The notes under the pieces were generated by a model. The model worked only from the letters and a program-made list of their open reading frames with translations. It was not told where the DNA came from and did no database searches. Positions 58,273 through 58,598 of a DNA stretch of 64,000 nt are shown here, in pieces. The position numbers were made by a program, and so were the translations under genes. The number at the start of each line of letters is the position of its first letter. Position 1 is the stretch's first letter. This stretch comes from Acutalibacteraceae bacterium (GTDB lineage: Bacteria > Bacillota > Clostridia > Oscillospirales > Acutalibacteraceae), in contig JAZQWT010000155.1 of the NCBI GenBank assembly GCA_045632485.1, positions 7,626 through 71,625 of the forward strand. Direction: 5' to 3'.

Positions 58273-58347
58273 CAGGGTTACGACTGCCTAAAGGCTTTGC
58301 CTTTGCCCGCATTAACGGGGCAATAATGCCCCGCCGTTCTGCGTTTA
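58273..58347 (-). repeat. CGCAGAGUG-box pseudoknot-like element, copy C (covarying variant)
   Basis: RNA UAA-ACGCAGAACGG-CGGGGC AUUAUU GCCCCG-UUAAUGCGG-GCAAAGGCAAAGCCUUUAGGC-AGUCGUAACCC. Confidence 0.6.
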
Positions 58348-58503
58348 TCTGCCTTTGCATCTTGCCTTAATTTTCGCCTTAATTATTGCCTTAATCTTAT
58401 CTTCAAAAGCAACAAATTTTTCTTCGTGCATAATGCCCCAAGCAATAAAAAGTGTGAATAATACCTCAAGAAGTATTATAAATGCAAGTGTTGAATCAAT
58501 CAT
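58345..58503 (-). CDS. Small membrane protein (52 aa)
   Basis: MIDSTLAFIILLEVLFTLFIAWGIM... ATG 58503 after an AAAGGCAG SD. Below the track cutoff. Confidence 0.4.
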   Translation of the reverse strand: MIDSTLAFIILLEVLFTLFIAWGIMHEEKFVAFEDKIKAIIKAKIKARCKGR

Positions 58504-58540
58504 ATTTGTACTGCCTTTCTTTCTTCTTTTGCGGCTGTCG

Positions 58541-58598
58541 GGGTTTGTGACCGTCTGCCTGACCGCATTAACAGCCTTTCGGCTGCCACTCTGCGTTT
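58541..58598 (-). repeat. CGCAGAGUG-box pseudoknot-like element, copy B
   Basis: RNA UAA-ACGCAGAGUGG-CAGCC GAAA GGCUG-UUAAUGCGG-UCAGGCAGAC-GGUCACAAACCC. Confidence 0.6.

Follow-up and report, generated by a model that had tools for sequence, protein, structure and literature searches.

We analysed a 64,000-nucleotide (nt) stretch of contig JAZQWT010000155.1 (positions 7,626 to 71,625 of the forward strand; Acutalibacteraceae bacterium, assembly GCA_045632485.1), which we refer to throughout as the window. Its genes, as identified with PHROGs and Pfam, include those for a terminase, an SPP1-type portal, a head protein, DNA methyltransferases, NAMPT, YopX, RtcB and Ro60 (TROVE), with a serine integrase encoded on the opposite strand. 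Because of this phage gene content, and because the relatives of the portal are all phages of Firmicutes (it is < 40% identical to that of any GenBank phage), we read the window as an uncultured temperate tailed phage or prophage; its relatives among metagenome-assembled genomes (MAGs) indicate that the host probably belongs to Clostridia. The subject of this study is an intergenic RNA element that the minus strand of the window carries in four full copies (A to D) and one truncated copy (E):

30705..30761, minus strand: twister A, type P5 (RF02684, 49.5 bits; nested fold z = -2.66)
58538..58595, minus strand: twister B, type P5, near-identical to A (RF02684, 44.3 bits; fold z = -2.19)
58272..58343, minus strand: twister C, type P5 with the optional stem P3 (RF02684, 46.0 bits; fold z = -2.73)
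42342..42400, minus strand: twister D, type P5 (RF02684, 47.0 bits; fold z = -0.26)
42583..42627, minus strand: copy E, an apparently non-functional relic (no Rfam match at E<=5)

This inventory agrees, essentially to the coordinate, with the original prediction, a reading of the letters of the window that had proposed five copies, one of them truncated, of an element acting at the RNA level on the minus strand; the latter point is correct too. The repeat is far from random: the pattern CGCAGARYG-N(8-38)-TAATGCGG occurs four times in the window, always on the minus strand (30729-30761, 42363-42400, 58307-58343 and 58563-58595), and not once in 100 dinucleotide-preserving shuffles. The exact nonamer CGCAGAGTG likewise occurs four times, in A, B, D and E. 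The segment that had been described as a variable hairpin differs from copy to copy, and C is alone among A to D in having an extra hairpin, P3 (58290-58304).

Membership of the type-P5 twister family

When the window was scanned against Rfam 15 at curated thresholds, all four full copies scored above the gathering score of RF02684 (Twister-P5; 37.6), and each match was full-length, covering model positions 1-58. No other ribozyme family was found in the window at E<=5 with the Rfam models, and no match to twister-sister, hammerhead, pistol or hatchet was reported at that threshold; overlapping matches from the same clan lost to Twister-P5. The element had been put forward as one without a counterpart among known ribozymes. 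That holds for hammerhead and pistol at E<=5, but it does not hold for twister, which was matched by all four copies: the Rfam search suggested for a supposedly unknown RNA returned RF02684, so the element class is already known, and the window adds members to it.

We took the defining features of twisters from two reviews (PMC5408937, PMC6154101). These describe optional stems P0, P3 and P5, two pseudoknots, T1 and T2, and a scissile bond, adjoining P1, between a less conserved U and a highly conserved A; the types P1, P3 and P5 are named after the stem in which the chain ends sit. Copies A to D all contain the essential stems P1, P2 and P4, together with an intact conserved core that consists of GA after P2, UAA directly 3' of P1, and U...AA in L4, the loop of P4. 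Departures from the upper-case consensus positions are confined to base pairs, and all are compensated. The chain ends lie between P4 and the 3' strand of P2, and P1 is closed, which is the type P5 permutation. The guanine 3' of CGCA would correspond to the active-site guanine "at the bottom of P2" (PMC6154101). A P5 helix flanking the element was not detectable (anchored complementarity of 1.76 pairs versus 1.62 in controls); this helix is listed as optional (PMC5408937).

Each ribozyme is laid out in the same way: the P2 3' strand (CGCA) is followed by L1, which comprises GA and the T1 triplet, then by P1, by UAA with the predicted cut after its U, and by the P2 5' strand (UGCG). Next come a 2-nt T2 strand, the optional P3, and the P4 hairpin, whose loop, U-NNN-AA-NN, holds the partners of both T1 and T2. 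P2 is CGCA/UGCG in all four copies; the P1 stems of A and B are 6 bp long, that of C is 8 bp long and that of D is imperfect; P4 has 3-4 bp and closes a loop of 8-9 nt. The individual elements are as follows:

30758-30761 with 30730-30733, minus strand: A, stem P2
30737-30752, minus strand: A, P1 hairpin
30753-30755 (GUG) with 30713-30715 (CAC), minus strand: A, pseudoknot T1
30728-30729 (GU) with 30709-30710 (AC), minus strand: A, pseudoknot T2
30706-30719, minus strand: A, P4
U30736 to A30735, minus strand: A, predicted scissile bond
58587-58589 (GUG) with 58547-58549 (CAC), minus strand: B, pseudoknot T1
58562-58563 (GU) with 58543-58544 (AC), minus strand: B, pseudoknot T2
U58570 to A58569, minus strand: B, predicted scissile bond
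58335-58337 (ACG) with 58280-58282 (CGU), minus strand: C, pseudoknot T1
58306-58307 (GG) with 58276-58277 (CC), minus strand: C, pseudoknot T2
58290-58304, minus strand: C, P3 hairpin
GCAG/CUGC, minus strand: C, P4
U58314 to A58313, minus strand: C, predicted scissile bond
42371-42391, minus strand: D, P1, imperfect
42392-42394 (GUG) with 42350-42352 (CAC), minus strand: D, pseudoknot T1
42362-42363 (GC) with 42346-42347 (GC), minus strand: D, pseudoknot T2
U42370 to A42369, minus strand: D, predicted scissile bond

The box sequences and hairpins of the original prediction, along with its changes of GUG to ACG and of CAC to CGU in C, all proved correct on reading the minus strand, and they translate readily into twister anatomy. 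The pairing that had been proposed between CGCA and UGCG is stem P2, and that between GUG and CAC across the hairpin is T1; box 1 is the P2 3' strand plus L1, the variable hairpin is P1, and box 3 is the P4 hairpin. What this layout overlooked is T2, the P4 stem and the U-A cleavage site. The long-range T1 pairing of the proposed H-type pseudoknot is therefore real, but it belongs to a twister double pseudoknot (T1 plus T2), not to a single one.

The window copies have the element order, the conserved core and the bacterial/phage intergenic context of type P5 twisters (RF02684; Roth et al. 2014, via PMC5408937). They differ in the middle T1 pair, which is U:A where the model consensus is G:C, in the ACG:CGU pairing of T1 in C, in the overlap of D with the upstream stop codon, and in having no flanking P5 helix. 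With types P1 and P3 (O. sativa Osa-1-4, env22; PDB 4OJI, 4RGE) they share the core, the two pseudoknots and the U-A scissile dinucleotide (PMC6154101, PMC5408937); those types are circular permutations with their chain ends in P1 or P3, whereas in the window copies P1 is closed and the ends fall between P4 and P2. Twister-sister has vaguely similar stems and P4-loop sequence, and it turns up in bacterial and phage neighbourhoods of the same kinds (PMC5408937, PMC8782182), but it gives no sign of pseudoknots and cuts the opposite strand (PMC5408937); the window copies, in contrast, have both pseudoknots, with covariation, and Rfam clan competition reported Twister-P5 for all four. Phage and bacterial hammerheads (types I and II) resemble the window element in their intergenic position near phage genes and in their proposed role in polycistronic mRNA processing (PMC6765202, PMC8782182), but their fold and active site are unrelated to it.

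Covariation in the window and in relatives

Within the window, A, B and D have GUG:CAC at T1 where C has ACG:CGU. T2 takes three forms, GU:AC (A and B), GG:CC (C) and GC:GC (D), and P4 two, CGG:CCG (A, B and D) and CAG:CUG (C; GCAG:CUGC with the outer pair). The ACG:CGU combination in C is a true compensatory change, as had been claimed. The pairing is also strand-specific, in that the G.U pairs in P1 (G10:U25 in A and B) would read as C-A mismatches on the opposite strand.

To find syntenic twisters in relatives, we used as an anchor the gene that adjoins copy C:

57806..58240, minus strand: ASCH-domain gene, directly downstream of C (Pfam ASCH, E = 3.8e-08)

Relatives of this gene, with proteins 60-83% identical, were found on four contigs (L121-L124), one from IMG/VR and three from MAGs of Clostridia or Ruminococcus, each of which has a Twister-P5 match of 44-66 bits just upstream of its ASCH gene. 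In these syntenic twisters T1 is GUG:CAC (L121, L124) or GCA:UGC (L122, L123), T2 is GG:CC or GC:GC, and a covarying P3 is present in L121, L122 and L123, with none in L124. Counting the ACG:CGU of the window, three fully complementary T1 triplets thus occur at a single syntenic site upstream of ASCH.

A larger sample came from a pattern scan of IMG/VR, which gave at least 120 contigs with a type-P5 twister pattern (L001-L120). Parsing (in Python) of the listed IMG/VR loci, the window and L121-L124, with P1, TAATGC and the P4/L4 frame as the only criteria, left 68 unambiguous type-P5 twisters that were selected without regard to T1/T2 pairing. Drawn with a pattern that fixes some positions, the IMG/VR sample supports the fold and is not an unbiased census: among the matches listed, T1 is 98.5% paired at each position of the 68 twisters, with 10 distinct triplet combinations, and T2 is 94-96% paired, in types that include GC:GC, GG:CC, GA:UC and GU:AC. 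The middle T1 pair of U:A is the commonest form (41 of the 68, among the matches listed). Homologues with compensatory substitutions, for which the original prediction had called, are therefore found both in L121-L124 and among the 68 parsed twisters of the matches listed.

These conclusions are reinforced by a 55-sequence alignment, in which 94.3% of cells are paired under the structure that includes both pseudoknots, compared with 79.3% in column shuffles (0/500 reach the observed value) and 31-43% when the partners are slid; P4 is 100% paired and P2 97.5%. The alignment was fitted to a narrow model built from A and B (a MAFFT alignment of the four copies misplaced D), and it spreads the second T2 nucleotide over several columns, so that its T2 counts are partial and the 68-twister parse is the better test of T2.

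Twister-P5 is common in viral contigs, often as arrays of 3-6 copies, and Rfam confirmed such arrays outside the window: L045 has six copies (2681-5405) at a regular spacing of ~550 nt, L046 (2618-4670) and L067 (532-4438) have four copies each, and L062 (519-3143) and L111 (1712-6822) have three each. Several copies per phage are therefore normal for the family. The spacing in L045 looks as if a ribozyme follows every small gene. The T1 triplets of the tandem pair B/C differ, as do those of a tandem pair in L122, while neighbouring twisters in L045, L046 and L007 have identical T1; we therefore rejected orthogonal T1 in neighbouring twisters as a rule.

Placement at stop codons

For A, B and C, the last base of the upstream stop codon stands 1 nt ahead of the element, and for E it stands 4 nt ahead of the CGCA box. 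In D the stop codon lies inside the element: the UGA (42391-42393) of an upstream 56-amino-acid (aa) open reading frame (ORF) overlaps the T1 5' strand. Start codons follow 25-74 nt downstream of the copies, and the original prediction was thus right to place the element at or inside a stop codon with a start codon beyond it.

This arrangement extends well outside the window. We considered same-strand ORFs of at least 40 aa around 74 parsed phage type-P5 twisters (from L001-L120, L121-L124 and copies A-D of the window); among the matches listed, 48 of the 74 (65%) start -10 to +5 nt from a stop codon, compared with 6.4% of random positions in the same loci. For these 74 twisters, again among the matches listed, the median gap to the upstream stop is 1 nt, versus 46 nt to the next downstream start. 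In eight cases from the matches listed, D included, the stop is the UGA inside GAG-UGA, and overlaps T1.

The abutment suggests an interplay with translation termination, to which compaction and shared ancestry are alternatives. A bolder hypothesis, which we put forward tentatively and consider rather unlikely, is that a twister at the stop codon is a functional rule of phage operons: the terminating ribosome would cover the P2 3' and T1 strands, upstream translation would gate folding or drive product release, and the arrays would act as translation-coupled punctuation of exchangeable small-gene cassettes. The evidence that we cite for this punctuation is the stop abutment itself (48/74 among the matches listed) together with a cassette order that differs between relatives (see below). 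If it has not already been described, the abutment could guide work on the interaction of cleavage with translation, and it is the only aspect of the locus that might repay more work.

Each of the four full copies points the same way as the genes on either side of it, and all are located in the first intergenic spacers of three small-gene runs. A promoter-like site precedes each of these runs and no terminator-like site was found between the twister-flanked genes, both types of call being consensus matches only. We also considered whether the elements might themselves be terminators, and rejected this reading: neither P1 nor P4 is followed by a U-tract, and none of the terminator-like calls coincides with an element.

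Predicted cleavage of polycistronic transcripts

On the strength of these sequence features we conclude that A to D are very probably type-P5 twister self-cleaving ribozymes, situated within polycistronic mRNAs transcribed from the minus strand of a temperate Clostridia phage or prophage, and we predict that they cleave. Their most likely main function would be self-cleavage of polycistronic phage transcripts just past the upstream stop codon. Bacterial twisters and hammerheads have been noted in the vicinity of phage genes, and a role in the processing of polycistronic mRNAs has been proposed for them (PMC6765202, PMC8782182). What the sequences establish is that A to D belong to the family, have its fold with covarying pairs, sit between co-oriented genes and are conserved in relatives; that they cleave, and that cleavage affects expression, we infer by analogy. 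Among the roles offered in the original prediction, an RNA processing site fits a self-cleaving family, whereas antitermination and translational coupling are unsupported as the primary function.

We envisage the following course of events. The copies would fold into P2, P1 and P4 with pseudoknots T1 and T2, and each twister would cleave itself at the bond that follows the first U of UAAUGCG (twister chemistry, PMC5408937). The upstream fragment would carry a 2',3'-cyclic phosphate and the downstream fragment a 5'-hydroxyl. The upstream cistron would then end in a ~30-nt tail closed by the P1 hairpin, this tail being short because the ribozyme starts 0-1 nt after the upstream stop, or overlaps it. 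The downstream cistron would begin with AAUGCGG, followed by the P4 hairpin and a ribosome-binding site. Adjacent cistrons would in this way be physically parted, and the likely effect would be to uncouple their stability and their translation.

Several observations weigh against this interpretation. P1 of D is imperfect, with two non-standard pairs, and its nested fold is no better than that of shuffled sequence (z = -0.26). Copy C alters a T1 pair that is G:C in 64 of the 68 parsed twisters among the matches listed, although the change is compensated, and copy B has one additional C in L4/P4. Co-transcription is assumed, since the promoter and terminator calls are consensus matches only. Furthermore, RNase J1 in Firmicutes can degrade RNAs with a 5'-hydroxyl, as is known from the glmS ribozyme literature; cleavage could therefore destabilise the downstream cistron, not stabilise it.

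Gene cassettes and an RNA-repair-type module near B and C

Twisters B and C enclose a single small gene:

58345..58503, minus strand: 52-aa small hydrophobic ORF (p52) between twisters B and C

The B-C segment, taken between the predicted cleavage sites, is 256 nt long. A homologue of the 52-aa ORF in L122 (169-354) is likewise directly followed by a twister. The order in the window, from 58272-58595 and on, is p63, twister B, p52, twister C and ASCH; at 169-1175 of L122 it is the p52 homologue, a twister whose 3' half is identical to that of D, an extra small ORF, a C-like twister and ASCH. The two loci thus differ by a shuffling of cassettes at twister boundaries.

About 3 kb away lies a group of features that makes up an RNA-repair-type module (51224-55163, minus strand), which also includes a 150-aa ORF:

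51224-52648, minus strand: Ro60 (TROVE and Ro60 vWA domains)
52985-53054, minus strand: tRNA-like element (tRNA model, 29.6 bits)
53212-53327, minus strand: YrlA / Y-RNA-like match, sub-threshold (30.8 bits versus a gathering score of 69)
53931-55163, minus strand: RtcB, about 3 kb from B and C

The Y-RNA-like match has permuted T-arm- and D-arm-like segments. The Ro60 gene of L122 is 85% identical, and the matching spacer there has three tRNA-model matches. A tRNA-model match of 31.7 bits at 5825-5967 of L122, within the spacer that is the counterpart of the Y-RNA-like region of the window, has an 83-nt insertion in its anticodon-arm region and could be an intron-containing or split tRNA-like element.

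Alternative explanations

The twister fold might have been kept while cleavage was lost, in which case the copies would act only as structured intergenic RNA: a 3'-end stabilising hairpin, a ribosome roadblock or a device for translational coupling. The weak P1 and unremarkable nested fold of D are compatible with such a loss, as is the change in C of a T1 pair that is usually invariant; E demonstrates that decay happens in this genome, and some computationally predicted ribozymes do not cleave on testing (PMC8782182). We nevertheless judge this improbable, in view of the intact unpaired core nucleotides (GA, UAA, U..AA) in all four copies, the changes being compensatory throughout, and of the syntenic relatives, which hold the core while P1, T1, T2 and P3 covary; such a pattern argues for selection on the whole catalytic fold, not on a hairpin. 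The covariation bears equally on the suggestion that the repeat works at the DNA level, as a protein-binding site, a recombination site or a mobile repeat whose RNA fold is incidental. It preserves RNA pairing, including that of the pseudoknots and the strand-specific G.U pairs; moreover, every copy is on the coding strand of its flanking genes and a curated ribozyme model is matched, so we find a DNA-level role very hard to credit, even though conserved ~60-nt repeats border small gene cassettes whose order varies among relatives (L122 has an extra ORF and twister) and E resembles a recombination product. Recombination at the repeats may be a side effect, and it leaves the conservation pattern unexplained. 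As for an H-type pseudoknot RNA of a new class that has no relation to known ribozymes and is dedicated to antitermination or translational coupling, the GUG:CAC pairing across the hairpin on which it would be founded is real, but the copies match Twister-P5 over its full length at scores exceeding the gathering score and contain every twister stem and both pseudoknots, which refutes it.

A different kind of proposal accepts cleavage and adds a later step, in which the RtcB of the phage circularises or rejoins the segments freed between twisters (for example, the 256-nt B-C segment with its 52-aa ORF) and the differing T1 of B and C prevents re-cleavage of the ligated junction. The elements of such a scheme are at hand: the RtcB gene lies about 3 kb from B and C, its product ligates precisely the kind of ends that ribozymes generate (PMC8782182), the T1 triplets differ between B and C and also within the tandem pair of L122, and eukaryotic tandem ribozyme pairs 186-399 nt apart yield circular RNAs (bioRxiv 10.1101/2024.05.16.594327). 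The wider survey points the other way, and leads us to regard the scheme as highly implausible. None of the 120 twister-bearing viral loci among the matches listed encodes RtcB within about 7 kb, and in 80 viral loci with RtcB no type-P5 twister lies within 10 kb; a 7.2-kb stretch of L122 that has both twisters and Ro60 contains no RtcB match, and neighbouring twisters in L045, L046 and L007 share their T1. In addition, the combination of RtcB with Ro60 and a Y-RNA-like element is already known as a self-standing RNA-repair module. We treat the co-occurrence of twisters with RtcB/Ro60 in this phage as coincidental, and a general twister-RtcB linkage, tested in both directions (0/120 twister loci among the matches listed, 0/80 RtcB loci), was rejected.

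With A to D read as self-cleaving type-P5 twisters, the chief value of the analysis lies in correct annotation: the intergenic repeats belong to a self-cleaving ribozyme family and do not constitute a new RNA class. The locus is also a natural test bed for what bacterial and phage twisters do, since its four copies are spread over three promoter-proximal gene runs, two of them flank a 52-aa ORF in tandem, a further natural copy, E, appears to be dead, and T1 and T2 occur in natural compensatory variants.

Copy E and a GC-rich hairpin

Copy E retains only the first 9 nt of a twister (CGCAGAGUG, box 1), possibly with a fragment of the P1 hairpin (GCCGAAGGGC). The CGCAGAGUG segment is fused to a GC-rich hairpin of the 5' untranslated region (UTR) type (GGCGGCGGCAAAACCGCC, 42585-42602), and in the alignment the 3' part of E matches the sequence downstream of A instead of the twister. 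There is no UAAUGCG cleavage site in E, nor a P2 5' strand, P4/L4, T1 partner or T2; it gave no Rfam match at E<=5, and a home-made model scored it at 7.1 bits (E = 4.7). The original prediction had counted E as a copy of the element, but with the catalytic half lacking it is no functional copy; judging from its sequence, we regard it as a dead relic of a deletion and not as a fifth ribozyme.

The hairpin that E contains has one other copy in the window:

30656..30673, minus strand: GC-rich hairpin GGCGGCGGGUAAACCGCC in the 5' UTR of a 604-aa methyltransferase/DUF4942 gene (exact pattern match)

This hairpin lies 32 nt downstream of twister A, and its sole other copy is the one inside E; the pattern GGCGGCGG-NN-AAACCGCC has two exact matches (30656-30673 and 42585-42602, minus strand), versus 0.05 expected. 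Both copies stand 24-25 nt upstream of a start codon, and the hairpin may protect the 5' end of the mRNA. Copy E looks like an A-type module (twister, UTR hairpin, ribosome-binding site) minus the catalytic half of the ribozyme, which was plausibly lost by recombination between the similar stretches CCGAAGGGC and CCGAGGGC.

Other features

Three further observations concern the phage setting. A four-tRNA cluster (Leu-TAA, Leu-CAA, Ser-TGA, Gln-TTG) at 10912-11264, on the minus strand, adjoins the head-gene block. NAMPT (nicotinamide phosphoribosyltransferase; phrog_448, E = 1.3e-157), at 47384-48859 on the minus strand, is a NAD-salvage gene of a kind linked to counter-defence. Finally, the viral contig L061, which has a twister much like A and B, also has an Rfam match to gut-2 RNA at 2683-2730 (48.9 bits).

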